A DNA stretch of 64,000 nt from the NCBI GenBank assembly GCA_001799635.1, contig MGTV01000008.1:879-64878 (forward strand). The letters run 5' to 3'. The position numbers and the translations under genes are program-made. How positions within the stretch are numbered: the stretch's first letter is position 1; every line of letters starts with the position of its first letter. Of this stretch, positions 43,637 through 64,000 are shown piece after piece. The notes under the pieces were generated by a model. The model was not told where the DNA came from. It did no database searches and worked only from the letters and a program-made list of their open reading frames with translations. The stretch is from Elusimicrobia bacterium GWA2_62_23 (GTDB lineage: Bacteria > Elusimicrobiota > Elusimicrobia > Elusimicrobiales > UBA9959).

Positions 43637-44182
43637 ATGAAGACCCTGTGTTCAGCTCTCTTTTTCGCGGCGATCTTTGCCGCCGTACCGGCTGCGGCCG
43701 CCGATACCGAGGATACCCTGCGGGCGCAACTCAAATCGGCCTCTACGCCTGAGGCCAGGCGCGCTATCATGGACCAGATAAAGCAGGCCCGCGCGGTTTC
43801 CCGTCCCGCCGCCGCGCCCGCGGCCCAGGCGGACCCCGCCGCCCGCCGGGCCAGGATGGAAGAATCTCTGAAGGACGATCCCGAGCGCCTGGCCGAATTC
43901 CGCCTGCAAGAGTCCCTGCGCGCCGCCAGGACCCCGGAAGACCGCGCGGCCATACGCAAGCAATTGGAAGAGAAACGCGCCGCCCGCGCCGCGAAGGCGG
44001 AGGCCGCGTTGACCCCGGAGCAGAAAGCCGTGCGCGCCCAAAGAGCGGCCCAGGCCGCCGCCATGCGCGCCGAAATGCAGCCGCTCAGGGAGCGCCTGCG
44101 CGCCGCCGCTACGGAAGCGGAGCGCGATTCCGCCAGAGAGGCCCTGCGCGCGGTGCAGGAAAAGTACCGTGCCAAGCCTTGA
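43637..44182 (+). CDS. Secreted Ala/Arg/Glu-rich helical protein, possibly Spy/CpxP-like (LTxxQ)
   Basis: GAGGA Shine-Dalgarno, signal peptide, highly helical low-complexity sequence, one LTPEQ motif. Confidence 0.45.
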   Translation: MKTLCSALFFAAIFAAVPAAAADTEDTLRAQLKSASTPEARRAIMDQIKQARAVSRPAAAPAAQADPAARRARMEESLKDDPERLAEFRLQESLRAARTPEDRAAIRKQLEEKRAARAAKAEAALTPEQKAVRAQRAAQAAAMRAEMQPLRERLRAAATEAERDSAREALRAVQEKYRAKP

Positions 44183-47705: not shown

Positions 47706-47773
47706 CCCGGCAGCGGGACGGGCAGCGACGTGCCGGGTTTTCGAACAGAAAACTGGCCTCTTCCCGCTTTTTA

Positions 47774-50700
47774 ATGTACGTCATGAACGAGTGCAGATAT
47801 AACAACCGTTGCTCTCGCTCCCGTATCCGTATGGGAGCGGTTTTTGCCGCTTTGTTGTTATCGTCTGTTCTTTTTGCGCCTGAGGGGGTTCGCGCGCAGG
47901 CCGTTCCGGACGGTATAGTTTCCTCCAAGTCCACCTCAACCTGCCATAATACCAATTCTTTTAATTTCTATTCGTCCTTCTCTGGAGCTTCCTATTACCG
48001 CTATGTCTGGGATACCAGCCCTACCCATACCTGGACGCACGCGGAAACCCAGTGGAGTTCCGGAGTCCTTAACCTTACGGCCGCCTCCGAAGGAACCTGG
48101 TATTTTCACGCTATGGCGTATGACAGCGGGGGGGTGCCGGGAACGGATATTCACCTGCCTCTGATCTACGATATCACTCTCCCTGTCGTTTCAGGTTTTT
48201 CCAGCCTGAATTCATCCGGCGGGACCGTGACCGAAAGCCAGTACAATAACCTGGCTTCCGGGGTTACCGTACAGATCACCGTGCAGGACGCTCTGGCGGG
48301 CCTGATAGTGACCACCGCTGCGGTACCTGGCGACATGCTCGGATTTCCCGGGGGGGTCTCCGTGGCGTATTCCAACGACGCCGGGCGTAACTGGGCCTAC
48401 GACACTGTAGTTTTAAGTTCTGATGGCGCTAAAACTTCGATCTTCTGTCTGGCAGTCTACAACGGCAGACTTTACGCCGGGCAGACTGGCAGCACTGGGG
48501 ACGGTGACGTGCTGGTATATGATGGCTCTTCCTGGAGCGTCAGCTACAACGGGTCCCAGACCGGTATCTACTCCCTGGCGGCCTATAACGGCAAACTTTA
48601 CGCTGGGCAAGGTCAGGGCACCGGGCTTGGAGATATTTACGTTTTCGACGGTGCCTCCTGGTCCCTTAATTACGACACTTCACGCGATATCACAATATCC
48701 ATGGCCGTTTATAACGGCAAACTCTACGCAGGCTGGGGCGACGACCTTGGAGAGGGTGACATCTATGCCTATGACGGCACTTCCTGGGTTTTTAGTTACA
48801 ACGGCGGCCAAGAGTATATACGTGCCCTGGCGGTATACAATAACAAACTTTACGCCGGGCAGGGCAGCGGCACTGGAGACGGCGACGTGCTGTCATACAA
48901 CGGGACTTCCTGGGGAACCAGTTATAATGGGGCACAGGAATACATAACATCGCTTTCGGTCTACAACGGCAAACTCTACGCCGCCCAGGGCAGCAGTACC
49001 GGAGACGGTGACGTATTTGTTTATGACGGTTCCTCGTGGACAACCAGTTATAACGGTTCGCAGGAAGTTGCCTACTTGGGGGTCTACGGCGGCAAATTGT
49101 ACGCGGGTGAGGGCACGGGCACTGGTGACGGCGATATGCTGGCTTTCGACGGGACCCGCTGGGGCCGCGTCGCGAATACGGATTATTCCTATGTTTACGC
49201 CCTCACGGGTTATGATGGGAGTCTCTTCACAGCCATGGGGAGCGGCACTCCCATGGGAGATATTTTGCGTTCGGCCCCTGCCGCCCCGGCAACGCTGACC
49301 GGTACCGACGGCACCACGGCGGCGCAGACCCTGTCGGCGGTGGTAAGTCTTTCCGCGTCCACCAATACGCAGACCTGCGCCGGGGCGGAGCCCTGCGGGG
49401 CCACCAACCAGGTGATCTTTACCGCCATGGACAGGGCCGGGAACGTGCGCCGCGCCGGGCCCTACGCGGTGCTGCTTTCCGTTACTCCTTCCGCGGCCGA
49501 GGTGGTTCCGGGGAAATCCACCGGGGTCTGGTACCATACCAGTTCCTTTACTTTTTCCTCGTCTTTCAAGGACGCGGCGTATTACCGGTACGCCTGGGAT
49601 ACTTCCGCCACCCATTCCTGGACTTATTCGGAACCGCAGTGGACGGCCTGGGTACTGTCCCCGGCCGGAGTTTCAGGGGCCGCCGGAAACTACCTGCACC
49701 TGCTGCCGTACAACATCGAGGGGACTTACGGGACCTCCCGGGATATAGGGCCGTTCTATCTGGACGCCTCTTCCCCGGTGGCGTCCGGCTTTGTCAGTTA
49801 CAGCTCTACCGCCGGCGTAATGGGTGAGGCCCAGGTGAATGGCCTGCTTTCCGGGGTCACCGTGCAGGTGACGGTTCAGGACATTCTCTCCGGCCTGTTG
49901 CTCAGCACCGCGGCGGTGCCGGCGGACCTGGCGGCCGGGCCCGGCGGTTTCGGGATGATGTATTCACAGGATTCCGGAACCACCTGGACGGTGAACGTGG
50001 CTTCCGTGTCCTTTGACGGTGCTGAAGAATATATCTTCGCGCTGGCGGCCTACAACGGGAAACTTTACGCGGGTCAGGGGAACGGGACCGGCAACGGGGA
50101 CGTTTATGTCTACGACGGAGTTTCCTGGAGCCTCAGCTATGACGGCGCCCAGGAAGCCATCTATTCCCTCGCCGTCTATAACGGCAAATTATACGCCGGA
50201 CAGGGATACAGTACCGGTGACGGGGATGTGCTGGTTTTTGACGGGTCGACCTGGGGCGTTTCTTTGGATAACCCTTTTGTTTCTTATGTTTACGCCATGA
50301 CCGAGTTCCAAGGTAAGCTATACGCCGCCTTCAGTAGTCCCGGATCTGTCTATTCTTTTGACGGGTCCTCCTGGACCAAGGTCTACGACTACAATACCAC
50401 GCTCGCCGACATGGCGGTGTACGACGGTAAACTGTACCTGGCCGCCATGTATTATATCCTGGTTTTCGACGGCAACTATTGGGGGATAACCTATGACGCC
50501 GGCGCTACGTATGTAAAGAAATTGGCCGTTTACAACAACAGGCTTTACGCCGGCCTTGGGGGTAGTACCGGTACCGGCGACGTGCTGGTGTACGACGGCA
50601 AGTCCTGGGCGATGAGTTTTGACGGTACCCAGGAATACATTGTTTCTCTCTTTCCTCACGACGGCAGGCTTTACGCCGGCCAGGGGAGCGGCACTGGGGA

Positions 50701-53700
50701 CGGCCGTATTTATGTTCTCAACGGCGCGACATGGACCCTGGCTTATTCCGGCCTGCAGGAGTATATCTATTCCATGGCGGCCTATAACGGAAAGCTTTAT
50801 GCCGGACAGGCCTACAGCTCCGGGGACGGCGACGTGATAGAATTTGCCCCCGCTTCCTCGGTGACCCTTAGCGGGAGCGACGGTTCCGTGGTTCCGCAAA
50901 CCCTTGCAGGCACGGCTAATTTTAAACTGTCTGCCACGGCGGACACCTGCTCCGGGACCTTCCCTTGTTCTGCCACTAACCAGGTCATTTTTACCGCTAC
51001 TGACAAGGCCGGCAACGTGCGGACGGCCGGTCCTTATGCCGTGCTGGTAGCGGGGCCGCCAAATTCTTCGGACGTTGACGCGCTCAAATCCACCGGCGTA
51101 TGGCATTCTTCCGGCACGTTCCCCTTCGTTTCCGGTTTTTCCGCCGCGGCTTATTACCGTTACGTCTGGGATAACTCGGTCTCCCATGACTGGACGGGCG
51201 GTGAAACGCAGTGGCCTTCGGGCGTTTTGTCGCTCGACGCGGCCGCGGAAGGAGCGGACTGGTATTTCCACGCCGTGCCGTACGACATCCTGGGCAGTTC
51301 CGGCCCCGACCGGCACATAGGGCCGCTCCGCTTCGACGCAACGCCGCCGGCCGTTTCCGCTTTCGCTTCTTTCAGTTCTACCGGCGGCTTGCTGGGGGAA
51401 TCTCAGTTCAACGATCTCCTGGCGGGGGTTACGGTGCAGCTGGTGGTACAGGACCTCCTGAGCGGCCTGGCGGTCTCGACCTTGGCGCCGGTTACCGAAC
51501 TTCCGGGAGGGCTGCAAGCCTTTTCCGTGGCTTATTCCAGCGACGCCGGACATGCCTGGAACACGCTCTCAACCGCTACCAGTTATAACGCTTCCCAGGA
51601 GGCGTTTTACTCGCTCGCGGTTTACGGTCAGAAGCTTTATGCCGGGCAGGCAAGCGAGGCCGGGGACGGGGACGTTTTCTCCTTCGACGGAACTTCCTGG
51701 GTGAAGACGTTCGACGGCACGCAGGAAACTATTTCCTGCCTCGCGGTTTACCAGGGGAAACTTTATGCCGGCCAGGGAACCGGCACCGGGGACGGGGACG
51801 TCTACGTTTATGACGGGATTTCCTGGCAGTTGAGTTATGACGGGCCGCGCAACATTATTTCCTCCCTCGCGGTTTACAAGGATAAACTCTACGCCGGCCA
51901 GGGCAGCAGTTCCGGTTACGGGGACGTGCTGGTGTTCGACGGCAGTTCCTGGAGCGTTTCCTATGACGGGGCGCAGGAATATATTTTTTCCCTCGCCGTG
52001 CACCAGGGGAGGCTTTATGCCGGACAGGGGAATGGCGCCGGGGACGGGGATGTGCTCGTTTACGACGGCATCAATTGGACGGTCAGTTATGACGGCGCCC
52101 AGGAGATTATAAACACCCTGGCCGTTTACGATGGCAAACTGTATGCCGGGCAGGGATACAATGCCGGGGATGGCGACGTGCTGGCCTTCGACGGGACCGC
52201 CTGGGGCGTTTCTTATGACGGGACCCAAGAAGGTATTTATTCACTGCAGCAGCACGGCGGTAAACTTTACGCCGGCCAGGGCAACGGTTCCGGAGACGGA
52301 GATCTCCTGGTCTATGACGGCGCCTCCTGGACCCTTGCCTGGAACGGGCCGCAGGAGGGCCTCTATTCCCTGGCCAGTTACAAGGGGCGCCTTTACTCCG
52401 GGCAGGGCATTTCTTCTGGCGACGGAGATGTCCTGGAGTTCTCTCCTTTCCCCGCCGTCCTGTCGGGCGCGGATGGGACCATTGCTCTGCAAACGGCCTC
52501 CTCCACGGTGCGCCTGGCCCTTTCTTCCAATACCCAGACCTGCGGCGGCGTAGAGCCTTGCGGAGCCACCAACCAGGTCCGTTTCTATTTTGCCGACCTG
52601 GCGGGAAATGTCACCCGGGCCGGTCCGTTTGCCGTCGTCACCCGGATCCCGCCTTCCGCCCAGAACGTAGTTTCCCTGAGATCCACGGGGACATGGTACA
52701 ACGCCGCGGCGGGTGATTTTACGTTCACTTCCGACTTTCAACAGGCGGTCTATTACCGTTACGCCTGGGACGCCTCTCCCACACGCGTCTGGGCTCATGA
52801 CGAAACACAGTGGCTTTCAGGAAATCTTGCCCTGGCGGGGGCGGACGGGCAGGACCGGTACCTCCACCTCCTGCCCCATGACCTGTCTGATTCCTCCGGT
52901 ACCCCTGTGGACCTCGGGCCTTTCCGGCTGGACAGCACCGCCCCATCCGTTTCCGGCTACAACTGGGTGAGTTCCACCGGCGGCCTCATGTCGGAAAGCC
53001 AGTTCCTTACCCTCGCGACAGGCGCGACTTTCCAGGTGTTGGCCCAGGACTCGGCTTCCGGCCTCATGGTCTCGTCCTATATTCCCACGGTGGGTTTTGA
53101 GGGCGGCAGCCTGCCCTCGGGCTTTTCTTCCGGCGGCAATCTGCCCTGGACGGTATCTTCTCTTATCCCCTACGCCGGCTCTTACGCGGTCCGTTCGGGG
53201 AATATCGGCAATTCCCAGTCTTCCTGGCTGCGCTTCCAGGGTGAATTACAGGCCGGCTTCCTGAATTTTTGGTTCAAATTGAGTTCCCAGAGTTCCTCCG
53301 ATTACCTCCGGTTCTATATAGACGGGGAGCAGCGGAGTGCGTGGAGCGGTGTTCTTGCCTGGAGCGAAGTGAGTTACGAAGTGGCGGCTGGGCAGCATAT
53401 CCTGGAATGGGTCTACGTCAAGGACGCTTCCTCTTATTCCGGTGATGACGAGGCCTGGGTCGACCAGATAACTTTTCCTGGCACTTACATGGCCGCTGAA
53501 TATTCCCTGGACGCCGGGACAACCTGGGCGGAAGTCCGGGATTTTTCCGCCGGCGCTATCCCGGGCCTGGCTTTGACCGGAGTCAATGGTACTGTGGCCC
53601 AGCAGACGGCATCGCTCTTTTCTCCCGCGTTCAAGGTTTCCACCAACACCCAGACCTGCGGCGGCGTAGAGCCTTGCGGGGCTACCAACCAGATACGTTT

Positions 53701-56700
53701 TGGCATCCCGGACCGCGCGGGGAACACAACCTATGCCGGGCCCTATGCCGTTCTGTTAACTCTGGCCCCCGAGGCGTCCGATGTGGCAGTTTCTAAGTCC
53801 ACCGGGGTATGGCACAATACCAGTTCTTTTACCTTCACTTCCGCTTTCCCTACGGCCGTCTATTACCGCTACGCGCTTACCAATTCTCCGGCTCATGTCT
53901 GGACGTTCTCCGAAACGCAGTGGCTGTCCGGAGCCCTTACGCTGGAAATCCCCGCCGGCTCTTCCGATTGGTATTTCCACGCCCTTCCTTACGATATCCT
54001 GAACGGTTCCGGCACTCCGGCTTCGCTTGGTCCGTTCCGCGTGGAAACGGCCTCTCCGGCTCTTTCAGGTTTTTACGTCTACAGTTCTACCGGCGGCATT
54101 TTTCCGGAGGGGGAATTCGTGGACCTTGCCGCCGGGGTTACGGCCCAGATCCTGGTGCAGGATGTTCTTTCCGGCCTGCTGGTTTCCACTTCCGTACCGC
54201 CTGCCGGCGGAACTTACGGCCCCGGCGGTTTTGGCGTCCTGTTCAGCAAGGACGCCGGGCAGACCTGGAGTTCGGATTTGCCGGCGACCACCTTTAACGG
54301 AGCGCAGGAGTATGTTTTTTCCCTGGCCGCCTACGGCGGTAAACTTTATGCCGGCCAGGGCATAGGCACTGGGGACGGCGACGTGCTGGTCTTCGACGGA
54401 AGTTCGTGGCAGATAAGTTATAACGGCACACAGGAGGTTATCCGCGCCCTTGTGGTCTACGACGGCAAACTTTACGCCGGACAGGGCAGCGGTACAGGTG
54501 ACGGAGATGTGCTGGTATACGACGGCAATTCCTGGGCGGTGAGCCATGACGGCTCCCGTCCCTCCGTCCTTTCCCTCTCCGTATATGCCGGCCGGCTTTA
54601 CGCAGGCCTGGGGGGATCCACCGGGGACGGGGACGTGATGGTGTTCGACGGCAGCTCCTGGACGTTGAGCTACGCTGGCGCCCAGGAGGGCATTTACTGT
54701 CTGGCCGTTTATGACGGAAAACTTTACGCCGGCCAGGGTTACAGTAATACGGACGGGGATATTTACGTTTTTGACGGCGTCTCCTGGACTAAAAGTTTCG
54801 AAGGATCTTCATACTTTATTCGCTCGCTGGCGGTTTATAACGGGAAACTTTATGCCGGCCAGGAGGGGTCGTCTACTACTGGCGGCGATATTTATTCCTT
54901 CGACGGGAAGTCCTGGATTAACGTCTTCGAAGGTGTCGGCTACGGCGTACAATCCCTGGCCGTTCATGATGGCAAACTTTATGCCGGCTTGGGGAAAGAA
55001 TCCTACTCTACGGTCGCGGATATATATGTGTTTGACGGGGTCACCTGGCGGCAAATGCATGACGGACCTGACGGGTTTGGTTATTTCGCGCTGGCCCCTT
55101 ACAATGGGCGCCTCTACGCGGGGAGCGGCTGGAGCGGGGATATCCTTGTGTTCTCCCCGGCGGCGGTCTCCTCGCTGACCGGGACGGACGGCACGGCTTC
55201 CCAGCAGACGCTTTCAACCCGTCTCGACCTGCGGACCTCCACTAATACCCAGACCTGCGGCGGCATTTCTCCGTGCGGGGCCACTAACCAGGTAAAATTC
55301 TTTGCCATGGACCTGGCCGGCAACGTCGCCATGGGCGGGCCCTACGCGTTGCTGATCTCCAGCACTCCCTCCGCCGACGACGCCTGGGTTTCCGTCTCCA
55401 CGGGGGGGTGGTACACCGCCGTCCCGCTTTCGGTCTTCTCCCCGTTCTCACGGGCGGCCTATTTCCGCTACAGCCTGGACGCGGCCGCCTCCCGGGAATG
55501 GACCTTTGCCGAACCCGTGTGGTCCTCCGGGACACTTTCGCTGGGGATCCCCGCCGATGGTACGGACTGGCACGTCCACCTGCTGCCTTATGACCTGCTG
55601 GACAGTTCCGGCGCCGCCCGCTCTATAGGTCCGTTCAGGTATGACGCCCAGCCGCCGGTCTTCTCGGCTTTTGCGTCCTACAGCTCCACCGGGGGGCTCC
55701 TGGGTGAGGCGCAGTTCAATGACCTGGTCTCGGGAGTAACCATCCAGATCTCCGTACAGGACGTCCTCTCCGGTCTGCTGGTCAGTTCGGCCGGAGTTCA
55801 GGGCTGGGGACCCTTTGCTCCCGGAGGTTTCCGCGCCGAATACTCCGCCGATTCCGGTGCCACCTGGCAAGAGGATACCCTTTCTGTTTCTTTCGACGGT
55901 GTGTTCTATGAAATAACCTGCTTTGCGGTTTATAACGGCAAACTTTACGCCGGGCAGGGGCGATACAGTGGGGCGGGGGATATTTACGCTTTTGACGGGG
56001 TCTCCTGGACTTTGGTTTATAACGGTTCCTATGACGAGGTTTCCTCTCTGGCCGTGTTCGAGGGAAAACTTTATGCCGGTATGGGGAACGCTTCCTCCTC
56101 CGGGGATATTTACGTGTATGATGGCGCTACCTGGGTGCTTTCTTACAACGGCCAGGCGAGTTCCGTGCACGCGCTCTCCGTTTACGGAGGCCGGCTTTAC
56201 GCCGCTCTTGGCGGCTACGCGGGGGTGGGAGACATCCTGGTGCATGACGGTGCCGCCTGGAGCGTATCCTATGACGGCGATTTGACCTACGCTTATGCCC
56301 TGGCTGTTTACGAAGGCCGCCTTTACGCGGGTTTCGGCGGCAGCACCGGTGATGGTGACATAATGGCCTATGACGGCCATTCCTGGACGCTCAGTTACGA
56401 CGGTTCCCAGGAAGGCTTCTTCTGTCTTGCGGTGTACGACGGAAAACTTTACGCCGGTCAGGGCAACGGCAGCGGCGACGATGATACTTACGTCTATGAC
56501 GGCAGTTCCTGGAGCCTTAGCCGCGCCGGCAGCGGCTATATAGTGTATTCGCTGGCCGTTTCGGGCGGGCGTCTTTTCTCGGGCGGAGGTTTTCCTCCTA
56601 ACTACGGGGGCACCGCTCCTTCCGACATCTTCATCTATGACGGGTCCGCCTGGACCCAGCTTTACGACGGAACCGGCCTCTATGACACGGTTTCCGCCCT

Positions 56701-59700
56701 TGCCGCCTACGGCGGCCGCCTCTACGCCGGTATGGGTGACGACTCCGGGAAAGGCGACATCCTGGCCTTTTCTCCGGTTGCGGTAGCGTCCATGACCGGA
56801 ACGGACGCTTCCACTTCCCAGGAACTGCTGCGGCTTTCCCTGGATCTGCGGGCTTCCGTCAACTCGGTCACCTGCGGCGGCGTGGCGCCCTGTGCGGCCA
56901 CCAACCAGGTCCGCTTCAAGGCCTCGGACATGGCAGGCAATGTCGTCCATAGCGGTCCCTACGCCGTCATAACTTCCCCGGAGCCTGACGCCTCAGAAGT
57001 GACCGCTTCCCTTACTACCGGGACATGGAATACGGCCAGTTCCAGCGCGGTGTTCTCTTCCTCTTTCCTGAAGGCCGCGTATTACCGTTATGTCTGGGAC
57101 ACCTCCGCGTCCCACGAGTGGACTTATGCCGAGTCCGCCTGGACGTCTGCGGCCCATTCTCTTTACCTGACGCCCGTGCCCGGCGCGGCGAATTGGCTTC
57201 ACTTGCTTCCCTATAACGTTTCTGACAGTTCGGGCTCCCCGCGGGACATCGGCCCTTTCAACTTCGACGGCGATCTTCCGGCCGCGTCCTCTTTCGCTTT
57301 TAGAAGTTCTACCGGAGGCCTGCTCTCTGAACCTCAGTTCTCCGATTTGTTGTCAGGAGTTACCGTGCAGCTCTCCTGGCAGGACCCGTCTTCCGGGCTT
57401 GCCGTAAGCACATACACCCTGTCCGGCCTGCGATATTCGAATGACGCCGGCGCCACCTGGGTCCCTTACCAGTGGGAACAAATACGCACCGGGCTGGATA
57501 CTCACGTACACGCGATGGCGGTTCATCAAGGGAAGCTGTATGTGGGCACCGGGTCTGGGACAGGGCGGGTATACTCTTACGACGGTTACGCCTGGGCACT
57601 GGTCTATGACGGCCCGGACTCCTACATGAATGCCCTGGCCTCTTACAATGGTCTCCTCTTCGCCGGCGGAGACTCCGGCAATGTGATGGTCTATGACGGC
57701 AATTCCTGGAAACTTTCTTTCGACAGTCCAGCGGAAACGGTCAAATCATTCCAGGTCTATAACGGCAAACTTTACGTTGGTACGGGTTATAACACCGGCG
57801 CTGTTTACGCTTATGACGGCGCAAGCTGGGTGTTCAAATTTTCCTACGCCGACGAGGTGAGTACCATGGCCGTTTATGACGGCAAGCTTTACGCTGGCTT
57901 CGGCAACGACTCCGGCGAAGGCGATATCTACGCTTATGACGGCTCCTCCTGGGTTCTTTCGTACAACGGCTCCGGTTCCAGCGTAATGTCCCTCGCCGCG
58001 TACGCGGGGAAACTTTACGCAGCAATGATCACTACCTGTGAGATCTACCAATTTGACGGTACTGTCTGGTCCCTTAATTTCACCGGCGGCGGGAACTTTT
58101 TCCCAAGCCTGGTGGAACATGACGGCAAACTTTATGCCGGTCTGGGATACGGTTCCGGGGAGGGAGATGTCTACGAATTCAACGGCAGTTCCTGGAGCAG
58201 CTCTTTTAACAGTTCCGAAGACACGGTTGGCGCCATGGCCGTGTACCGCGGTGAAATTTACGTGGGGACCGGATATCATGGCCATATCTACAAGTTGCGG
58301 TCCTATTCTGTCCCTGAGGTTACCGGGGTGTCCGGCACTACGGAGCAGCAGGTCATGTCCGGCCTTGTTTCTCTGTCGGCCTCCACCAACACCGAAACCT
58401 GCGGCGGCGCCGCCCCCTGCGGGGCCACCAACCAGGTTAAATTCTACGCGGCCGACACCGCGGGGAATCTTAGTTTCGCGGGGCCGTACGCGGTGCTGGC
58501 CGCCCCGGAGGCTTCGGCCGCGGACGCAGCCGCGAATTTCTCTACCGGGGCCTGGACCAGCCGCAGCACTTTTTCTTTCAACTCTTCTTTCATCCAGGCG
58601 GCCTATTACAGGTATGTCTGGGACGCTTCGCCCGCCAGGGAGTGGGTTTATACCGAGCCGCAGTGGCTCCCTTCTTCCGCAACTCTTTCTTTTCAGGCCG
58701 CGGAAGGGGCCAACTACCTGCATCTCCTGCCTTACAACGTTTTGGGTTCTTCCGGGGCTCCCCGGGACCTCGGGCCTTTCCTTTTTGAAGCCGCTTCTCC
58801 CACCGCGGCGGCTTTCTTTACCATAAGTTCTACCGGTGGCGCCCTCAGCGAAGCCCAGTTCAATGCCCTTGTGGAGGGCGTTACCGCGCAGCTTACGGTG
58901 CGCGACCTGCTCAGCGGCCTCAGCGTTTCTACCTGGGCCGCCGTATATGAGGGTTTTGAGACCGGCACCCTGCCGCTGGGTTGGGAAACCGGCGGGAATC
59001 TGCCCTGGTATACGCAATCAGGGGTTCAGTTCGCAGGTGGCCACGCCGCCAGGGCCGGGCTTTTGGCGCCTTCGCAGGTTTCCTGGCTGCAGGCGACGGT
59101 GCAGAATTTCGTCCCGGGACAGTTTTCTTTCAGACGTTATGGACAGGCCGGCGATTCCTGGTTCAGGTTCTGGATAGACGGGGCCTCCAAGGGCTACTGG
59201 TTTGCGGAAACCTCCGGCTGGGTGCAGGAAAGTTACGCGGTTTCCGCCGGGTCCCACACCTTGCTTTGGCAGTATCTTACTAATTCCAATCCCGGCCTCA
59301 ATCTCCTTCTCCTGGACGATATCACTTTCCTGCGGCGACCTTCCTGGGCGGAGTACTCACTGGACGCCGGGGTTACCTGGAAACAGGCCGGGACCGTTTC
59401 CCTTACCGGCGCGGAAGGCAGTACGGAAGACCAGACCCTGAGCGCCCTGTTCACGCTGCGCGCTTCTTCCAATACCGAAACCTGCGGCGGGTCCTCTTCT
59501 TGCGGTGCCACCAACCAGGTCCGATTCTATGTTTCCGACCAGGCCGGGAACGTGAGGCAGGCGGGGCCTTTCGCCGTTATAACCTCGCCTGTTCCGCACG
59601 CTTTGGACGTGCAGTCAGGCAGGTCCACGGGCACCTGGTACAGCGTGCCCAAATTCACGTTCCAGTCTGAGTTCTTTGGCGCGGCCTATTACCGTTACGT

Positions 59701-62700
59701 CTGGGACACCTCCGACTCTTACGAGTGGACGTACGCCGAACCGCAGTGGGGAGCGGGGAACCTTTCACTCTCCGCGGTCACCTCCGGCGCCGGCTACTAC
59801 CTGCACCTGCTGCCTTACAATGTTTCCGACAGCAGCGGGGCACCCCGGCACCTGGGGCCGTTCTTCTTCGAGGGAGACATCCCTTCCGGGTCTTCTTTCG
59901 CCACCGTCAGTTCTACCGGAGGACTTCTTTCCGAATCCCAACCCACCGCGCTTTCCGCCGGGGTCACGGTGCAGTTCACCTTGCAGGATGTTCTCTCAGG
60001 GCTGTTGGTCTCGGAGGGGGGCGCTCCTTCGGAATATCCTTTCCAGGCCGGAGGTTTCAGGATTTCATACTCCCGGGACGCGGGCGCTACCTGGTCCTCC
60101 GAAAGTACGGTAGTTTCTCATTACAGTTCGGCTATTGGCGTGCATTGCCTCACGGTTCATGACGGTAAACTCTACGCGGGGCATGGGGAGGACGACGAAC
60201 TCGGGCAGGGCGACATTTTTGTGTATGACGGTTCCTCCTGGTCGTTGAGTTATGAAGGCCAGGAGGTCAGCATCCGCGCCCTGGCATCCTACGGCGGCAA
60301 ACTATACGCCGCACAGTACGGCTGGGACGAGGGAGATGGGGATATCCTGGTGTTCGACGGTGGGAGCTGGTCCGTCAGCTATGACGCCGTGGTCTACGGG
60401 GGTATCGAGTCCCTGTGGGCTTTCGGCGGGAAATTATACGCCGGTACGCTAAGTTGGGATGTCCTGGGGGATATCCTGGTCTTTGACGGCGGTTCCTGGA
60501 AACTGGACTTCGCCACGGGCAAGGACGCGGTGGCCGCTTTCGCTACCTACAACGGGGAACTCTTTGCCGGGGTCGGCTACGATGACGCCAACGGGAACGG
60601 GGACATTTATGTGCGCCGAGGCAATTCCTGGGAGGGTTCCTTCGACGGCAATGAGATTTCCATCCGGGACTTCGCCGTTTACGGCGGAAAACTTTACGCC
60701 GCGCAGTACGGCTGGGATACCGGAGACGCCGTGCTTCTGGTCTATGACGGGGAGCAATGGACCCAGCATTCCACTTTTGACGTCTATGTCGGCGTAGCGA
60801 GTTTGTCCGTGTATAACGGGCGGCTTTTCGCGGGTATCGGGGACTTTTCCTGGGATCCGGACGGGGAAGTTTACTCATACGACGGCGAGGTCTGGACCAG
60901 GATCTATGACGGCGCTAAGATGGCCATAAAGGACCTGGCAGTGTATGACGGCTCCTTGTACGGCGCCGAGTACGGCTATTCGCCGGGAGAGGCTTCCGTG
61001 CTCAGACTTTCCGACCCGGTGCGGGCCTCCATTACCGGCTCCGACGGCACTACCGCCGCGCAAACGTTTTCCGCGGTTCTGGACTTGTCGCCCTCGGCGG
61101 ACGGGGCCGTCTGCGCGGGTGTTGCTCCCTGCTCCGCCACCAACCAGGTAAAGTTCACCGCCACCGACAGGGCTGGCAACGTGGGGATCTACGGGCCGTA
61201 CGCCGTTATAGCCGCGTCGGCGGCCAGCGCCGCGGACGCGGTAGCGGAACGTTCCACCGGCGCCTGGCACAATACCCCCGGTTTCTCGTTCCGCTCCGGT
61301 TTTGGCGGCGCGCTCTACTACCGGTACGCCTGGGATACTTCCCCTTCCCGCTCCTGGACCGGCACCGAGCCGCAATGGACGTCCACTTCCCCTGCTCTTC
61401 ACGTGAGGGCCGCCGCCGAGGGCGCCGATCATTACCTCCACCTGCTGCCGTATAACTACCTGGACGGGGAAGGCCCCCCCAGGGACATCGGCCCGTTCCG
61501 GTTTGAAATGGCCGCGCCCGCGCCCTCAGGTTTTTCCAGCGTAAGTTCCACCGGGGGCTACATGTCCGAATCCCAGGAGAACGACCTGGCCGCCCAGGTG
61601 CAGGTCCGTCTTTCCCTGCAGGATATCCTCAGCGGGCTTTCGGTACTGCCCGACGCCCCGCATGGCCCGGCCGGGTTCCCGGCCGGGGGGTTCTCCGTGC
61701 GCTACTCTAACGACGCCGGCGCCACCTGGTCCGCGGGGGTGGCCTCCCTTTCCTTCGCCGGCCCGACCGAGGATATCACCGCCCTGGCCGTTTATAACGG
61801 CAAACTTTACGCCGGACAGGGTTACGACGACATGGACGATGAAGGCGACGTTTACGTGTACGACGGCAACGCCTGGGCGCTGAGCCTTAACGGGTATAAA
61901 GTGGCCATACGCTGCCTGGCCGTCTATGACGGCAAACTTTACGCGGGGCAGTACGGCTGGGAGTACGGCGACGGGCGCGTGTACGTTTTTGACGGTAATA
62001 CCTGGGAGATCTCCCTGGCCCCTTCGCTTGCGATCTCCGCGCAGGACCTGGCCGTGTATAACGGCAAGCTCTACGCTGGCCTTTACGGCTGGTGGGACGA
62101 TGACGAAGGGGATGTTTATGTTTTCGACGGTAAGACCTGGCGGATCAGTTTTGACGGCATCACGGACGGTATCGCCGCCTTGGCCGTATACGACGGCAAG
62201 CTTTACGCGGGCGAAGGCTATTGGGGCGACACAGGCGAGGGAGATGTGCGGGTTTTCGACGGTAATTCCTGGAAACTTTCTTTTGACGGCGGCGCCACCA
62301 CTATAAATTCCCTGGCTGTTTATGACGGCAGGCTTTTCGCCGGTCAGACCGGAGCCGGCGGGGACGGGGATGTCTATGTCTACGACGGTTCTGCCTGGGT
62401 GCTTTCCCTGGATGGGGAGACCGAAGGCTTCAGTTCGCTGTGCGTTCATAACGGCCGGCTCTATGCCGGTGCCGGTTACTGGGGATCGGAAGGCGACGGG
62501 GATATGTACGCTTATGACGGTGCCTCCTGGAGACTTGAATTCGAGGGGCCGGCCGCGGCGATACGCGCCATGGCGTCTTACGGCGGCGCTCTTTATTACG
62601 GCGAAACAGGCTATGACCCCGGCGACGGCCGCGTAATGCGCCTCTTGGATAGCCCCTCGGCCGCCCTGACGGGCACGGAGGGCACGGCCTCTCCCCAGAC

Positions 62701-64000
62701 GCTTTCGGCTTCTTTGGCGTTGAAAGTTTCCACTAACACCGAGACTTGCGGAGGAGTCTCTCCCTGCGGCGCTACCAACCAGGTGGTCTTCGCTTTTACC
62801 GACACGGCCGGTAACTCCGCTAACGCCGGCCCCTACGCCATTATTTCCGTCCCGCCGCTGAGCGCGGACGACGTTACCCCTTTGCGTTCCACCGGGGTCT
62901 GGTACCATACTTCCACTTTCGGCTTTACCTCCGCTCAGGTCAACGCCGCTTATTATCGCTATGCCTGGATAGACTCACCTTCTTACGCTTGGACCTATTC
63001 CGAGCCGGTCTGGTCCACTCCGGATATGGATTTGAGCGCTTTGTCTTCCGCCGCTACCTGGTATCTTCACCTCCTGCCCTATAATTCCGGCGGTACTTTT
63101 GGCGCTTCACGCGTCATAGGGCCTTTCCTTTATGACGGCGTGGCGCCGTCCCCGTCCTTCTTCCATACCTATAACTCCACCGGCGGGGTAATAGCCGAGC
63201 CCGGCTTTAATAACCTTACCTCCGCGGTTACCGCCCAGCTCTCCGTCTGGGAAGGCCTCAGCGGGCTGTCGTTGCGCTTCTATGAACCCGGACAGGACGT
63301 GTTTTCCGCCGCTGCCAGGAGCTTTGAGGAGGGGACTCTGCCGGCGCAGATGGTTACCGGGGGGAACGCTCCCTGGTATGTCGTATCCGGCACCGCGGCG
63401 GCCGGAACCTATTCGGCCCGCAGCGGCGACATAACGGAAGGCGGCCAATCCTACATGTACTTCTCCGCGGATACAACGGAGGGGGAGATCTTCTATTACC
63501 GGCTTATTGATACCGAGAGCCGCTACGATAACCTGCGTTTCAGTATAGACGGCGTAGAGGTTTCCTCCCGTTCCGGCGGCTTGCCTTGGGCGAAAGAGAG
63601 TTTTCCCGTCAGCGCAGGGCGGCATACCTTCATGTGGGTTTACGTTAAAGACCTCTGGGATACCGAGCTGTCGGACACGGTATGGGTGGACCAGATAGAA
63701 CTCCCTTCAACGGCCACCGTGCAGGTGCAGTATTCCACCAGTGCCGGCAACAACTGGCTGCCGGTGCAATCCACGGTGCCGGCCGCTTCGCCCTACCTGT
63801 CGCTTACCGGCTTCGACGGCACCTTGTCCACCCAGACCTTCAAGGTCTATAACATGCAATTGGCGCCTTCCACCAGCGCCGTGGTCTGCGCGGGGGCCTC
63901 CCCCTGCGACGCCACCAACCAGGTGCGGTTCTTCCTTGGCGACCACGCGGGAAATTTGATGACGGCCGGTCCTTATTCGGTGCTGGTCGACACCGCCCCC
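47774..64000 (+). CDS. Giant secreted modular repeat protein, 3' end beyond the window (at least ~5,400 codons). Not present in the supplied ORF track
   Basis: The frame with codon starts congruent to 2 mod 3 is open from ATG 47774/47783/47831 to base 64000. I hand-translated 47783-50370 and 51542-56000 and found no stop. The track lists no + ORF in this frame after 47705, as expected for an ORF that never closes. The N-terminus MGAVFAALLLSSVLFAPEGVRAQA is a signal peptide. Conserved protein modules recur 11 times. Confidence 0.85.
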   Translation, partial: MYVMNECRYNNRCSRSRIRMGAVFAALLLSSVLFAPEGVRAQAVPDGIVSSKSTSTCHNTNSFNFYSSFSGASYYRYVWDTSPTHTWTHAETQWSSGVLNLTAASEGTWYFHAMAYDSGGVPGTDIHLPLIYDITLPVVSGFSSLNSSGGTVTESQYNNLASGVTVQITVQDALAGLIVTTAAVPGDMLGFPGGVSVAYSNDAGRNWAYDTVVLSSDGAKTSIFCLAVYNGRLYAGQTGSTGDGDVLVYDGSSWSVSYNGSQTGIYSLAAYNGKLYAGQGQGTGLGDIYVFDGASWSLNYDTSRDITISMAVYNGKLYAGWGDDLGEGDIYAYDGTSWVFSYNGGQEYIRALAVYNNKLYAGQGSGTGDGDVLSYNGTSWGTSYNGAQEYITSLSVYNGKLYAAQGSSTGDGDVFVYDGSSWTTSYNGSQEVAYLGVYGGKLYAGEGTGTGDGDMLAFDGTRWGRVANTDYSYVYALTGYDGSLFTAMGSGTPMGDILRSAPAAPATLTGTDGTTAAQTLSAVVSLSASTNTQTCAGAEPCGATNQVIFTAMDRAGNVRRAGPYAVLLSVTPSAAEVVPGKSTGVWYHTSSFTFSSSFKDAAYYRYAWDTSATHSWTYSEPQWTAWVLSPAGVSGAAGNYLHLLPYNIEGTYGTSRDIGPFYLDASSPVASGFVSYSSTAGVMGEAQVNGLLSGVTVQVTVQDILSGLLLSTAAVPADLAAGPGGFGMMYSQDSGTTWTVNVASVSFDGAEEYIFALAAYNGKLYAGQGNGTGNGDVYVYDGVSWSLSYDGAQEAIYSLAVYNGKLYAGQGYSTGDGDVLVFDGSTWGVSLDNPFVSYVYAMTEFQGKLYAAFSSPGSVYSFDGSSWTKVYDYNTTLADMAVYDGKLYLAAMYYILVFDGNYWGITYDAGATYVKKLAVYNNRLYAGLGGSTGTGDVLVYDGKSWAMSFDGTQEYIVSLFPHDGRLYAGQGSGTGDGRIYVLNGATWTLAYSGLQEYIYSMAAYNGKLYAGQAYSSGDGDVIEFAPASSVTLSGSDGSVVPQTLAGTANFKLSATADTCSGTFPCSATNQVIFTATDKAGNVRTAGPYAVLVAGPPNSSDVDALKSTGVWHSSGTFPFVSGFSAAAYYRYVWDNSVSHDWTGGETQWPSGVLSLDAAAEGADWYFHAVPYDILGSSGPDRHIGPLRFDATPPAVSAFASFSSTGGLLGESQFNDLLAGVTVQLVVQDLLSGLAVSTLAPVTELPGGLQAFSVAYSSDAGHAWNTLSTATSYNASQEAFYSLAVYGQKLYAGQASEAGDGDVFSFDGTSWVKTFDGTQETISCLAVYQGKLYAGQGTGTGDGDVYVYDGISWQLSYDGPRNIISSLAVYKDKLYAGQGSSSGYGDVLVFDGSSWSVSYDGAQEYIFSLAVHQGRLYAGQGNGAGDGDVLVYDGINWTVSYDGAQEIINTLAVYDGKLYAGQGYNAGDGDVLAFDGTAWGVSYDGTQEGIYSLQQHGGKLYAGQGNGSGDGDLLVYDGASWTLAWNGPQEGLYSLASYKGRLYSGQGISSGDGDVLEFSPFPAVLSGADGTIALQTASSTVRLALSSNTQTCGGVEPCGATNQVRFYFADLAGNVTRAGPFAVVTRIPPSAQNVVSLRSTGTWYNAAAGDFTFTSDFQQAVYYRYAWDASPTRVWAHDETQWLSGNLALAGADGQDRYLHLLPHDLSDSSGTPVDLGPFRLDSTAPSVSGYNWVSSTGGLMSESQFLTLATGATFQVLAQDSASGLMVSSYIPTVGFEGGSLPSGFSSGGNLPWTVSSLIPYAGSYAVRSGNIGNSQSSWLRFQGELQAGFLNFWFKLSSQSSSDYLRFYIDGEQRSAWSGVLAWSEVSYEVAAGQHILEWVYVKDASSYSGDDEAWVDQITFPGTYMAAEYSLDAGTTWAEVRDFSAGAIPGLALTGVNGTVAQQTASLFSPAFKVSTNTQTCGGVEPCGATNQIRFGIPDRAGNTTYAGPYAVLLTLAPEASDVAVSKSTGVWHNTSSFTFTSAFPTAVYYRYALTNSPAHVWTFSETQWLSGALTLEIPAGSSDWYFHALPYDILNGSGTPASLGPFRVETASPALSGFYVYSSTGGIFPEGEFVDLAAGVTAQILVQDVLSGLLVSTSVPPAGGTYGPGGFGVLFSKDAGQTWSSDLPATTFNGAQEYVFSLAAYGGKLYAGQGIGTGDGDVLVFDGSSWQISYNGTQEVIRALVVYDGKLYAGQGSGTGDGDVLVYDGNSWAVSHDGSRPSVLSLSVYAGRLYAGLGGSTGDGDVMVFDGSSWTLSYAGAQEGIYCLAVYDGKLYAGQGYSNTDGDIYVFDGVSWTKSFEGSSYFIRSLAVYNGKLYAGQEGSSTTGGDIYSFDGKSWINVFEGVGYGVQSLAVHDGKLYAGLGKESYSTVADIYVFDGVTWRQMHDGPDGFGYFALAPYNGRLYAGSGWSGDILVFSPAAVSSLTGTDGTASQQTLSTRLDLRTSTNTQTCGGISPCGATNQVKFFAMDLAGNVAMGGPYALLISSTPSADDAWVSVSTGGWYTAVPLSVFSPFSRAAYFRYSLDAAASREWTFAEPVWSSGTLSLGIPADGTDWHVHLLPYDLLDSSGAARSIGPFRYDAQPPVFSAFASYSSTGGLLGEAQFNDLVSGVTIQISVQDVLSGLLVSSAGVQGWGPFAPGGFRAEYSADSGATWQEDTLSVSFDGVFYEITCFAVYNGKLYAGQGRYSGAGDIYAFDGVSWTLVYNGSYDEVSSLAVFEGKLYAGMGNASSSGDIYVYDGATWVLSYNGQASSVHALSVYGGRLYAALGGYAGVGDILVHDGAAWSVSYDGDLTYAYALAVYEGRLYAGFGGSTGDGDIMAYDGHSWTLSYDGSQEGFFCLAVYDGKLYAGQGNGSGDDDTYVYDGSSWSLSRAGSGYIVYSLAVSGGRLFSGGGFPPNYGGTAPSDIFIYDGSAWTQLYDGTGLYDTVSALAAYGGRLYAGMGDDSGKGDILAFSPVAVASMTGTDASTSQELLRLSLDLRASVNSVTCGGVAPCAATNQVRFKASDMAGNVVHSGPYAVITSPEPDASEVTASLTTGTWNTASSSAVFSSSFLKAAYYRYVWDTSASHEWTYAESAWTSAAHSLYLTPVPGAANWLHLLPYNVSDSSGSPRDIGPFNFDGDLPAASSFAFRSSTGGLLSEPQFSDLLSGVTVQLSWQDPSSGLAVSTYTLSGLRYSNDAGATWVPYQWEQIRTGLDTHVHAMAVHQGKLYVGTGSGTGRVYSYDGYAWALVYDGPDSYMNALASYNGLLFAGGDSGNVMVYDGNSWKLSFDSPAETVKSFQVYNGKLYVGTGYNTGAVYAYDGASWVFKFSYADEVSTMAVYDGKLYAGFGNDSGEGDIYAYDGSSWVLSYNGSGSSVMSLAAYAGKLYAAMITTCEIYQFDGTVWSLNFTGGGNFFPSLVEHDGKLYAGLGYGSGEGDVYEFNGSSWSSSFNSSEDTVGAMAVYRGEIYVGTGYHGHIYKLRSYSVPEVTGVSGTTEQQVMSGLVSLSASTNTETCGGAAPCGATNQVKFYAADTAGNLSFAGPYAVLAAPEASAADAAANFSTGAWTSRSTFSFNSSFIQAAYYRYVWDASPAREWVYTEPQWLPSSATLSFQAAEGANYLHLLPYNVLGSSGAPRDLGPFLFEAASPTAAAFFTISSTGGALSEAQFNALVEGVTAQLTVRDLLSGLSVSTWAAVYEGFETGTLPLGWETGGNLPWYTQSGVQFAGGHAARAGLLAPSQVSWLQATVQNFVPGQFSFRRYGQAGDSWFRFWIDGASKGYWFAETSGWVQESYAVSAGSHTLLWQYLTNSNPGLNLLLLDDITFLRRPSWAEYSLDAGVTWKQAGTVSLTGAEGSTEDQTLSALFTLRASSNTETCGGSSSCGATNQVRFYVSDQAGNVRQAGPFAVITSPVPHALDVQSGRSTGTWYSVPKFTFQSEFFGAAYYRYVWDTSDSYEWTYAEPQWGAGNLSLSAVTSGAGYYLHLLPYNVSDSSGAPRHLGPFFFEGDIPSGSSFATVSSTGGLLSESQPTALSAGVTVQFTLQDVLSGLLVSEGGAPSEYPFQAGGFRISYSRDAGATWSSESTVVSHYSSAIGVHCLTVHDGKLYAGHGEDDELGQGDIFVYDGSSWSLSYEGQEVSIRALASYGGKLYAAQYGWDEGDGDILVFDGGSWSVSYDAVVYGGIESLWAFGGKLYAGTLSWDVLGDILVFDGGSWKLDFATGKDAVAAFATYNGELFAGVGYDDANGNGDIYVRRGNSWEGSFDGNEISIRDFAVYGGKLYAAQYGWDTGDAVLLVYDGEQWTQHSTFDVYVGVASLSVYNGRLFAGIGDFSWDPDGEVYSYDGEVWTRIYDGAKMAIKDLAVYDGSLYGAEYGYSPGEASVLRLSDPVRASITGSDGTTAAQTFSAVLDLSPSADGAVCAGVAPCSATNQVKFTATDRAGNVGIYGPYAVIAASAASAADAVAERSTGAWHNTPGFSFRSGFGGALYYRYAWDTSPSRSWTGTEPQWTSTSPALHVRAAAEGADHYLHLLPYNYLDGEGPPRDIGPFRFEMAAPAPSGFSSVSSTGGYMSESQENDLAAQVQVRLSLQDILSGLSVLPDAPHGPAGFPAGGFSVRYSNDAGATWSAGVASLSFAGPTEDITALAVYNGKLYAGQGYDDMDDEGDVYVYDGNAWALSLNGYKVAIRCLAVYDGKLYAGQYGWEYGDGRVYVFDGNTWEISLAPSLAISAQDLAVYNGKLYAGLYGWWDDDEGDVYVFDGKTWRISFDGITDGIAALAVYDGKLYAGEGYWGDTGEGDVRVFDGNSWKLSFDGGATTINSLAVYDGRLFAGQTGAGGDGDVYVYDGSAWVLSLDGETEGFSSLCVHNGRLYAGAGYWGSEGDGDMYAYDGASWRLEFEGPAAAIRAMASYGGALYYGETGYDPGDGRVMRLLDSPSAALTGTEGTASPQTLSASLALKVSTNTETCGGVSPCGATNQVVFAFTDTAGNSANAGPYAIISVPPLSADDVTPLRSTGVWYHTSTFGFTSAQVNAAYYRYAWIDSPSYAWTYSEPVWSTPDMDLSALSSAATWYLHLLPYNSGGTFGASRVIGPFLYDGVAPSPSFFHTYNSTGGVIAEPGFNNLTSAVTAQLSVWEGLSGLSLRFYEPGQDVFSAAARSFEEGTLPAQMVTGGNAPWYVVSGTAAAGTYSARSGDITEGGQSYMYFSADTTEGEIFYYRLIDTESRYDNLRFSIDGVEVSSRSGGLPWAKESFPVSAGRHTFMWVYVKDLWDTELSDTVWVDQIELPSTATVQVQYSTSAGNNWLPVQSTVPAASPYLSLTGFDGTLSTQTFKVYNMQLAPSTSAVVCAGASPCDATNQVRFFLGDHAGNLMTAGPYSVLVDTAP
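48440..49279 (+). repeat. Propeller-like array 1: seven ~41-aa (~123-bp) blades, consensus xxSLAVYNGKLYAGQGxGTGDGDVxVYDGSSWxxSYDGxQE
   Basis: Seven consecutive blades read in the translation. Confidence 0.75.
50030..50851 (+). repeat. Propeller-like array 2 (seven blades)
   Basis: Same blade consensus. The central blades are more degenerate. Confidence 0.7.
51602..52447 (+). repeat. Propeller-like array 3 (seven blades)
   Basis: Seven clean blades read in the translation. Confidence 0.75.
53090..53482 (+). repeat. Jelly-roll-like module J1 (paralogues at 58946-59332 and 63317-63709)
   Basis: VGFEGGSLPSGFSSGGNLPWTV...SYAVRSGNIGNSQSSWLRF...LRFYIDGEQRSAW...GQHILEWVYVKD...AWVDQITFPG. The same pattern (FExGxLPxGW..GGNxPW ... 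W(V/L)DxIxxP) occurs in all three copies. Confidence 0.7.
54311..55159 (+). repeat. Propeller-like array 4 (seven blades)
   Basis: Blade consensus as above. Confidence 0.7.
55907..56776 (+). repeat. Propeller-like array 5 (seven blades)
   Basis: Blade consensus as above. Confidence 0.7.
57503..58303 (+). repeat. Propeller-like array 6 (about seven blades, more divergent)
   Basis: Blade consensus as above. Confidence 0.65.
58946..59332 (+). repeat. Jelly-roll-like module J2
   Basis: YEGFETGTLPLGWETGGNLPWYTQ...WFRFWIDGASKGYW...GSHTLLWQYLTN...LLLDDITFL. Confidence 0.7.
60134..61015 (+). repeat. Propeller-like array 7 (about seven blades, variant with YGWDxGDG loops)
   Basis: Blade consensus as above. 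Confidence 0.65.
61772..62660 (+). repeat. Propeller-like array 8 (seven blades)
   Basis: Blade consensus as above. Confidence 0.7.
63317..63709 (+). repeat. Jelly-roll-like module J3
   Basis: RSFEEGTLPAQMVTGGNAPWYVV...LRFSIDGVEVSSRS...GRHTFMWVYVKD...VWVDQIELPS. Confidence 0.7.

Follow-up and report, generated by a model that had tools for sequence, protein, structure and literature searches.

A giant modular protein of an Elusimicrobia bacterium, probably a surface fibre with guest domains nested along its stalk

The window, a stretch of 64,000 nucleotides (nt) of contig MGTV01000008.1 from Elusimicrobia bacterium GWA2_62_23, ends within a giant gene that probably encodes a Sec-exported cell-surface fibre of this Elusimicrobiota bacterium, with guest domains held out sideways for multivalent binding; our confidence in this reading is fair rather than high. 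In the window, the product is a chain of eleven homologous modules, each comprising a domain D1 and a second domain, D2, which we predict to be the host of an inserted guest, a seven-bladed propeller in eight modules and a jelly roll in the other three. Frame 2 is free of stop codons from 47543 to 64000 (16.4 kb), and the open reading frame (ORF) leaves the window at its 3' edge. Its features are as follows (lengths in amino acids, aa).

47831..64000, plus strand: giant ORF, 5390 aa in the window, 3' end cut; alternative starts ATG 47774 and 47783
47831..47902, plus strand: predicted Sec signal peptide MGAVFAALLLSSVLFAPEGVRAQA, read by eye from the sequence
47903..49471, plus strand: module 1 (long); D1, D2 head, Asp-box 48368-48394, seven-bladed propeller guest 48395-49285, D2 tail 49295-49471
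49472..51043, plus strand: module 2 (long); Asp-box 49961-49987, propeller guest 49988-50857
51044..52636, plus strand: module 3 (long, modelled); D1 51044-51319, D2 head 51320-51478, Asp-box 51533-51559, propeller guest 51560-52450, D2 tail 52460-52636
52637..53752, plus strand: module 4 (short); D1 52637-52915, D2 head 52916-53074, jelly-roll guest 53078-53488, Asp-box 53501-53527, D2 tail 53573-53752
53753..55351, plus strand: module 5 (long); Asp-box 54242-54268, propeller guest 54269-55165
55352..56968, plus strand: module 6 (long); Asp-box 55841-55867, propeller guest 55868-56782
56969..58495, plus strand: module 7 (long); Asp-box 57434-57460, propeller guest 57461-58309
58496..59578, plus strand: module 8 (short); jelly-roll guest 58934-59341, Asp-box 59354-59380
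59579..61207, plus strand: module 9 (long); Asp-box 60068-60094, propeller guest 60095-61021
61208..62842, plus strand: module 10 (long); Asp-box 61703-61729, propeller guest 61730-62656
62843..63982, plus strand: module 11 (short, terminal); jelly-roll guest 63281-63718, Asp-box 63731-63757

Eleven modules in one reading frame

A sequence-only reading of this stretch had reported a block that recurs eleven times, and eleven homologous modules are indeed present. With module boundaries set by cutting after GP[YF][AS][VLI], every pair of modules matches at a BLAST E-value between 1e-16 and 1e-162. These values were obtained with SEG masking and composition-based statistics, and because they survive both corrections, the similarity is not merely one of low-complexity composition. 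The motif xC[GAS]xxxxC[GASD][AGS]TNQ, which serves as a ruler, has 11 copies, at 49373, 50945, 52538, 53654, 55253, 56870, 58397, 59480, 61109, 62744 and 63884, with spacings of 1572, 1593, 1116, 1599, 1617, 1527, 1083, 1629, 1635 and 1140, and does not occur once in 2000 residue shuffles of the protein. The ruler positions and spacings read earlier from the letters were thus reproduced computationally, each position to within 2 nt. In addition, YYRY, VQDxxSGL, SxDxGxxW and AGNxxxxGP[YF] are each found once per module. Eight modules are long (509-547 aa) and three are short (361-380 aa), in the order LLLS LLLS LLS, so that the alternation of 3+1, 3+1 and 2+1 proposed earlier holds for this sequence.

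The repeats are old. Identity is 42-54% among long modules and 40-45% among short ones, and at the DNA level Tandem Repeats Finder detected only the propeller of module 3, the most regular of them, with a 126-bp period at 51606-52299. Non-synonymous (dN) and synonymous (dS) divergence between paralogous modules is ~0.5 and ~1.7, respectively, which points to old duplications; as dS is saturated, the dN/dS ratio between modules is not interpretable. Against the orthologue at locus L032, one of the Elusimicrobia loci described below, dN is 0.298 and dS 1.351, and the resulting dN/dS of ~0.22 shows that the giant gene is under purifying selection.

Translation from ATG 47831 opens with the sequence resembling a Sec signal peptide, and this ATG is probably the start codon, with the two upstream codons also possible. 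The start at 47930 given in the sequence-only reading would lie ~100 nt inside the gene. A hairpin with an 11-bp stem (TCGCTCCCGTA...TATGGGAGCGG, then TTTTTG; 47815-47840, plus strand) overlaps the proposed ATG; it could occlude the start codon, or the real start could be one of those upstream. The protein encoded in the window has a mass of 569 kDa, an isoelectric point (pI) of 4.26 and a composition dominated by G (13%), S (12%) and A (11%), and 22 of its 32 cysteines lie in a paired C-x5-C motif. G+C content of the window is 59-66%, save for one segment of 55%. Many ORFs of 150-500 aa lie inside the giant gene on the minus strand and in other frames between 48423 and 63625 (for example 55448-56950, minus strand), and are taken as by-products of high G+C content and not as genes. 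Searches of metagenome contigs for the missing 3' end, with an exact 70-mer and with module 11, gave no match.

The D2 host domain and its guests

Long modules read D1, SSTGG..VTVQ..VQD.LSGL, YSxDxGxTW, propeller and LTGTDGT...TCGG..PCGATNQV.F..D.AGN....GPYAV, and in short modules the jelly roll precedes the YSxDxGxTW element. The key to this arrangement comes from two relatives, P0129 and P0135, which have modules of 241-259 aa without a guest, such as residues 2152-2403 of P0135. In these, an FN3-like domain with a YYWRV motif is followed by a continuous domain of ~140 aa in which head motifs, Asp-box and closing motifs follow one another without an insertion. When the guests are removed from the window protein, all 11 D2 sequences can be aligned with these uninterrupted domains over their full length, at 42-51% identity (alignment A5), and we therefore regard the head, the Asp-box and the closing block as one domain. 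On this comparison, D2 is predicted to be a single β-sandwich of ~140 aa bearing an Asp-box hairpin (YSxDxGxTW) and a C-x5-C loop (TCGGxxPCGATNQV), and the propeller and the jelly roll would be insertions in two neighbouring loops that flank the hairpin. This revises the picture of a block of four serial parts arranged as beads on a string. All the motifs listed for the block are present, but its second and third parts and its closing segment form a single D2, inside which the guests are nested and which relatives hold uninterrupted. Likewise, the Asp-box was placed before the fourth part, which is correct for the eight long modules but not for the three short ones, where it comes after the jelly roll.

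We measured the gap between head and tail with hidden Markov models (HMMs) of the two D2 halves in 165 D2 copies of relatives, with the following result.

Gap of at most 60 aa: 19 copies, no guest
Gap of 140-200 aa: 8 copies, jelly roll
Gap of 200-300 aa: 61 copies, LamG in the copies examined
Gap of 300-380 aa: 76 copies, propeller
Gap of 800-1200 aa: 1 copy

A third guest, LamG (Pfam Laminin_G_3, E 1e-22 to 1e-31), is thus the second commonest class in relatives (61 of the 165 copies), is absent from the window protein, and is inserted before the Asp-box, as the jelly roll is. Nested LamG domains are seen in the relatives P0129 (for example residues 1602-1954), P0131 and P0136, in the same loop as the jelly roll of the window.

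The S-x-D-x-G-x-T-W hairpin motif occurs once per module, for example as YSNDAGATW, with a degenerate form, YSTSAGNNW, in module 11. It resembles the Asp-box (BNR) of sialidases and sortilins; unlike there, the hairpin sits in a β-sandwich host and not only in propeller blades, and its scores are below the family thresholds. The Pfam BNR profile (PF02012) is sub-threshold on D2, with a best E of 0.052 and matches in 5 of 14 D2 sequences. Apart from this similarity and weak matches to Big_3_2 and CHB_HEX_C, D2 resembles nothing known, and sequence-profile searches of the PDB (with A1, A2, A5 and A6) returned sub-threshold Asp-box matches to sialidases and nothing more.

An AlphaFold2 model of module 3, built from a 10-sequence alignment, has a mean predicted local distance difference test (pLDDT) of 78.5. 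In it, D1 is a confident sandwich of 6-7 strands (blocks with pLDDT 83-92), and the seven-bladed propeller is also confident, with blade blocks mostly at pLDDT 75-95. D1, of ~95 aa, may therefore be described on the model as an FN3-like β-sandwich; its equivalent in relatives carries the FN3-like YYWRV motif, and the D1 alignment has no sequence match in Pfam or the PDB. Seven repeats of ~42 aa with the pattern YNGKLYAG..G.GDGDV.VYDG.SW..SYDG.QE are found in each of the eight long modules, which, together with the high-confidence model, bears out the seven-bladed propeller suggested earlier. Foldseek searches of the PDB with the module 3 model returned seven-bladed propellers of beta-TrCP, LGI1 EPTP, Ycf48 and bacterial WD40 proteins (E ~5e-9, TM 0.6-0.76 when normalised by target). 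No Kelch profile scored above threshold, module 3 has no Pfam family at E<=0.1, and homologues of the propeller give just sub-threshold matches to Kelch_FKB95, KIB1-4 and DUF6242. Identities between blades are flat at 41-45%, whether within a module, at the same blade position or otherwise, and blade-level analysis is therefore uninformative on the origin of the propellers.

The guest that replaces the propeller in the three short modules is ~137-146 aa long. In the AlphaFold2 model of a short module, from a 3-sequence alignment, the sole usable part is the jelly-roll region (residues 160-290, pLDDT 60-85). With this region, Foldseek found, at E 1e-5 to 1e-3, the C-terminal domain of VesC and the carbohydrate-binding modules (CBM) CBM61, CBM35, CBM29 and CBM6, and it also matched MAM; the Pfam profile CBM_35_2 is sub-threshold (E 0.063, 13.8 bits vs a cut-off of 23). 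The earlier suggestion of a jelly-roll-like module is consistent with this model, from which we predict, with moderate confidence, that the guest is a jelly roll, putatively CBM-like.

Relatives, module order and genomic surroundings

Relatives were sought with A3, a profile that spans the junction between consecutive modules. Of 1.84 billion representative proteins, 511, with P0129 and P0135 among them, matched A3 at E<=1e-3, and in a scan of one genome per GTDB species the profile found 29 loci, which do not include the window's own DNA, all of them in metagenome-assembled genomes (MAGs) of Elusimicrobia/Elusimicrobiota. Many of the 29 loci hold ORFs of 4000-6700 codons. Among relatives in the genome collection, the stalk unit is restricted to Elusimicrobiota. 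No viral relatives of it were found in IMG/VR, and a viral origin was rejected on that ground.

The closest full-length relative, P0126, has 5722 aa and is ~50% identical to the window protein. It comes from Elusimicrobia bacterium GWB2_63_16 (locus L001, where it is cut at its N-terminus) and is complete on one JGI and one ENA metagenome contig. Its 11 modules read LLLLLLLSLLS and are followed by a tail of 183 aa, while P0128 reads LLLS plus the tail, P0127 ...LLSLLS plus the tail, and P0133, which is 64% identical to modules 9-11 of the window, ...LS plus the tail. Full-length relatives thus consist of a signal peptide, 4 to 11 modules and a 183-aa tail, the latter made of an FN3 domain and a 65-aa Cys-containing domain ending in ...KAV[KR]KY. 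The Pfam fn3 profile scores 25.8 bits in one of the orthologue tails (cut-off 25) and 21.7 in the other. Since the last module is followed by another 183 aa in orthologues, ~177 residues of the window protein most likely lie past the window end.

The closest orthologue, at L032 (64% identity), is split by a frameshift into two overlapping ORFs (2-5263 and 5211-9626); either the repeats were misassembled there or the gene is a pseudogene. In contig JAPLKK010000017.1 (1-45787), from an Elusimicrobia MAG of Lac Pavin, the ORFs with stalk units at L024, L009 and L017 are near-continuous over more than 45 kb, one of them, at L024, being open across all 18.5 kb; this suggests either tandem giant genes or one far larger gene.

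These relatives also bear on the order of modules. Relatives read LLLLLLLSLLS, LLSLLS and LLLS, so that the 3+1 rhythm is true of this sequence and is not a conserved grammar. By our own count, with the terminal short module fixed, 3 of the 45 possible placements (C(10,2)=45) are as even as 3,3,2, or ~7%. We compared module histories by best hits and by a neighbour-joining (NJ) tree of host domains, built without bootstrap support values. A single clade unites the terminal short modules of all five family members, and modules 8-11 are positionally orthologous; the best match of module 8 is module 8 of P0126 (R6 of L001). Modules 1, 3, 4, 5 and 6 of the window fall together, which places the host domain of the short module 4 among long modules. 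Module 2 lies outside this group, and modules 2-7 of P0126 form a cluster of their own, so that the N-terminal parts were expanded or homogenised independently in each lineage. Duplication of a four-module unit was considered and rejected, as neither the NJ tree nor the identity matrix pairs modules 1, 5 and 9 or modules 2, 6 and 10.

The giant gene lies in a region rich in other fibre-like genes. Its immediate upstream neighbour is conserved:

44214..47705, plus strand: 1163-aa secreted beta-helix/fibre-like protein, conserved upstream neighbour of the giant gene

A homologue of this protein lies 8 nt upstream of the P0126 gene at locus L030, the two share the C-terminal end ...ENRTSDPxAPVTGQIW[FL]RVD, and the 1163-aa protein has further matches among phage virion-structural and tailspike PHROGs (E 1.5e-27). 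It is the last of four upstream ORFs (35992-43601 and 44214-47705, plus strand; 684, 381, 1419 and 1163 aa) that encode secreted repeat or fibre-like proteins with recurrent LG[NT]H[TV]ATQ.LNM.GF motifs and beta-helix or YadA-head-like repeats. Among them sits a small secreted ORF rich in K, R, E and A (43637-44182, plus strand). Directly downstream of the giant gene, L030 (19486-21012) and L032 (9657-11146) encode a charged secreted protein of 153-154 aa, of the same kind as this small ORF's product, and a Sel1-repeat protein.

Further upstream in the window, an ORF at 34885-35973 (plus strand) encodes a 362-aa secreted protein with a C-terminal sorting domain of the type IX secretion system (T9SS), type A (TIGR04183, 26.2 bits vs 23). 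To our knowledge, this phylum is not usually linked with T9SS. A similar C-terminal domain, of the YPNPF...KIGVIH type, closes 31 of 144 sequences more distantly related to the giant protein and none of its five closest relatives. Elsewhere the window encodes the hydrogenase maturation proteins HypD and HypF, a GT20 trehalose-phosphate synthase-like protein, a TreT-type trehalose synthase and a Fic-domain protein (956-7133 and 16387-22787), as well as an M23 peptidase and transporters. Genes for tRNA-Tyr(GTA), tRNA-Leu(CAG), tRNA-Glu(TTC) and tRNA-Leu(CAA) lie at 241-423, 24470-24545 and 30803-30886; the tRNA-Tyr stretch is the sole DNA common to the window and any of the 29 loci (93% over 84 nt).

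Proposed function and its alternatives

We propose that the backbone of the protein is a chain of 11 D1-D2 stalk units, that is, of 22 sandwich domains, in which D2 would act as host, with a guest spliced into one of its two neighbouring loops. In eight units, the guest would be a seven-bladed propeller of ~42-aa Kelch/Asp-box-like blades directly after the Asp-box, and in three units a CBM-like jelly roll of ~137-146 aa directly before it. With both ends of a guest joined to the same D2 loop, the stalk chain would run on unbroken and the guests would stick out sideways. An Ig or FN3 domain is usually 3.5-4 nm long, so that 22 sandwich domains would make a rod of ~80-90 nm with 11 lateral candidate binding domains, the propellers and CBM-like guests. 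Such a rod might bind a repetitive ligand, such as a glycan or another cell surface, through avidity.

That the protein is extracellular is suggested by its signal peptide, its pI, its paired cysteines and the absence of a catalytic domain. Homologues of the propeller elsewhere are fused to LamG, pilin N-termini, T9SS tails, SLH, dockerin and tail-fibre domains, partners that fit a multivalent binder at the surface, and the synteny of the giant gene with other fibre-like genes is taken as further support for a surface fibre. From these features we infer surface location, rod geometry, ligand binding and adhesion, and an adhesin or fibre function is plausible. By analogy with the orthologues, the FN3 and 65-aa Cys-containing C-terminal domains may provide the anchor.

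Several observations weigh against this proposal. Pfam and NCBIfam searches with whole modules (long and short), D1, D2, the jelly roll and the propeller gave nothing above threshold. In the model of module 3, the region linking D1 and the propeller and the C-terminal 60 residues are weak (pLDDT 33-72), the short-module model has a mean pLDDT of 46, and the nested topology rests on comparison of sequences, D2 lacking a confident three-dimensional model. Every homologue named in its source is labelled 'hypothetical', so that annotation lends no support to location or ligand. Furthermore, the part of the protein in the window has no anchor, its C-terminus being beyond the window end, and a profile of the orthologues' C-terminal domain found one extra 51-aa match and otherwise no relatives.

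Four traits define a fibrillar adhesin (PMC9210967): great length, a stalk of repeats, a region for adhesion and an anchor. The window protein has the length (at least 5390 aa and 569 kDa in the window) and, with its 11 tandem D1-D2 units and presumed rod geometry, the stalk; its propeller and CBM-like guests are candidate binding domains by fold, and no known adhesive Pfam domain was found in it. It resembles fibrillar adhesins as a very long, secreted, tandem β-sandwich rod with a variable number of repeats (4 to 11 modules here), but differs in that a putative binding domain is nested in every stalk unit and not placed at one distal tip, and in that D1 and D2 match no known stalk family. 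'Periscope' proteins have near-identical repeats, whereas those of the window have diverged to ~48% identity. Giant RTX adhesins of type I secretion systems (T1SS), such as LapA, MpIBP and SiiE, are likewise surface proteins of giant size and acidic character, in which Ig-like extenders form long arrays. In contrast to them, the window protein has an N-terminal Sec-like signal and putative binding domains spread along the rod, and with no GGxGxD motif (the RTX nonapeptide) in 5390 aa, its identity as an RTX/T1SS adhesin was rejected.

Two other systems share building blocks with the protein. LamG-propeller proteins and pseudopilins of candidate phyla radiation (CPR) bacteria, DPANN archaea and other uncultured lineages (P0002-P0067) have propellers of the same family, with 40-60% identity to the blades of the window and the motif YNGKLYAG...GDGDV.VYDG.SW, but there the propeller adjoins LamG, DUF2341, an N_methyl pilin N-terminus or a T9SS tail, and the D1-D2 stalk unit and the 11-fold array are absent. 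Jing and colleagues are said to have found that the YVTN propeller and PKD domains of archaeal (M. mazei) surface-layer proteins lie in series. These proteins also combine a seven-bladed propeller of ~42-aa blades with Ig-like sandwiches at the cell surface; the difference is that here the propeller is inserted within a sandwich and the host belongs to a bacterial phylum. Modules 3 and 4 have no Pfam or NCBIfam match at E<=0.1, to YVTN-repeat and PKD profiles or to any other.

The archaeal proteins raise an alternative that we consider unlikely, namely that the giant protein is an envelope or S-layer-like structural protein whose propeller-sandwich units tile the surface as a lattice or sheath. 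It would share identical building blocks, a seven-bladed propeller of ~42-aa blades and Ig-like sandwiches in a secreted acidic protein, with an archaeal precedent (Jing et al. 2002, Structure 10:1453, as cited in the reference list of PMC2447325), and its gene clusters with those of several other large secreted repeat proteins. However, close relatives range from 4 to 11 modules, a variation common in stalks and unusual in lattice subunits, the swapping of guests (propeller, LamG, CBM-like or none) points to diversity in ligand binding, and the part in the window has no SLH or other S-layer anchoring domain. Improbable too, in our view, is a scaffold for nutrient capture, in which the CBM-like jelly rolls and propellers, as multivalent lectin-like domains, would retain at the cell surface the polysaccharides or particles on which the cell feeds. 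The resemblance of the jelly roll to CBM6/29/35/61 folds, the LamG guests of relatives and the fusion of some propeller homologues to dockerin or SLH domains would suit such a role; yet no glycoside hydrolase or transporter genes are among the window ORFs scanned, and the CBM-like assignment comes from a model of moderate confidence, with Pfam CBM_35_2 below threshold as given above.

Less credible still is a role in contact with other cells, for predation or episymbiosis, although giant extracellular proteins of Omnitrophota have been proposed to act on prey cells (bioRxiv 10.1101/2023.11.21.568195) and the propeller has fold-level relatives in phage fibre and receptor-binding proteins: the 5390 aa seen contain no lytic, toxin or peptidoglycan-degrading domain, the window shows no sign of a predatory lifestyle, and the stalk unit has no viral relatives in IMG/VR. 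Finally, MAG assemblies often garble repeat-rich genes, as the frameshift in the L032 orthologue might illustrate, and the composition is biased, but the idea that the array is a repeat mis-assembly, a pseudogene or a similarity of G/S/A/T-rich composition can practically be dismissed given the uninterrupted 16.4-kb frame, an inter-module identity of just 42-54%, which leaves no room for assembler collapse or chimera, the corrected E-values, the recurrence of the architecture across independent assemblies (P0126 lies on two contigs, one from JGI and one from ENA) and the dN/dS of ~0.22.

Beyond the proposal of a surface fibre with lateral guests, we suggest more tentatively, and with rather less than even confidence, that D2 is a dedicated display domain, so far confined to Elusimicrobiota, which takes varied guests at two adjacent loops, and that each lineage would have a multivalent fibre of its own, set by the combination of guests in an array of 4 to more than 11 units. 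If true, this would be a previously undescribed fibre design, with binding domains along the stalk instead of at its tip, and four or five domain families outside current classifications would be added.

Giant surface proteins made of repeats are already known, and no established view is overturned here. Elusimicrobiota are mostly uncultured. They are rich in proteins of more than 5000 aa, which have been left unexplained (PMC11573180), and the present architecture is not described in the literature on giant and huge proteins consulted (bioRxiv 10.1101/2023.11.21.568195 and PMC11573180). The locus gives a clear anatomy for one giant-protein family of Elusimicrobiota. If confirmed structurally, D1, D2, the CBM-like guest, the propeller subfamily and the KAVKKY C-terminal domain would be new domain families, and the repeated host-guest scaffold would be a natural one of possible interest to protein engineers. 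Recombinant guests would then offer a handle on what these bacteria attach to.

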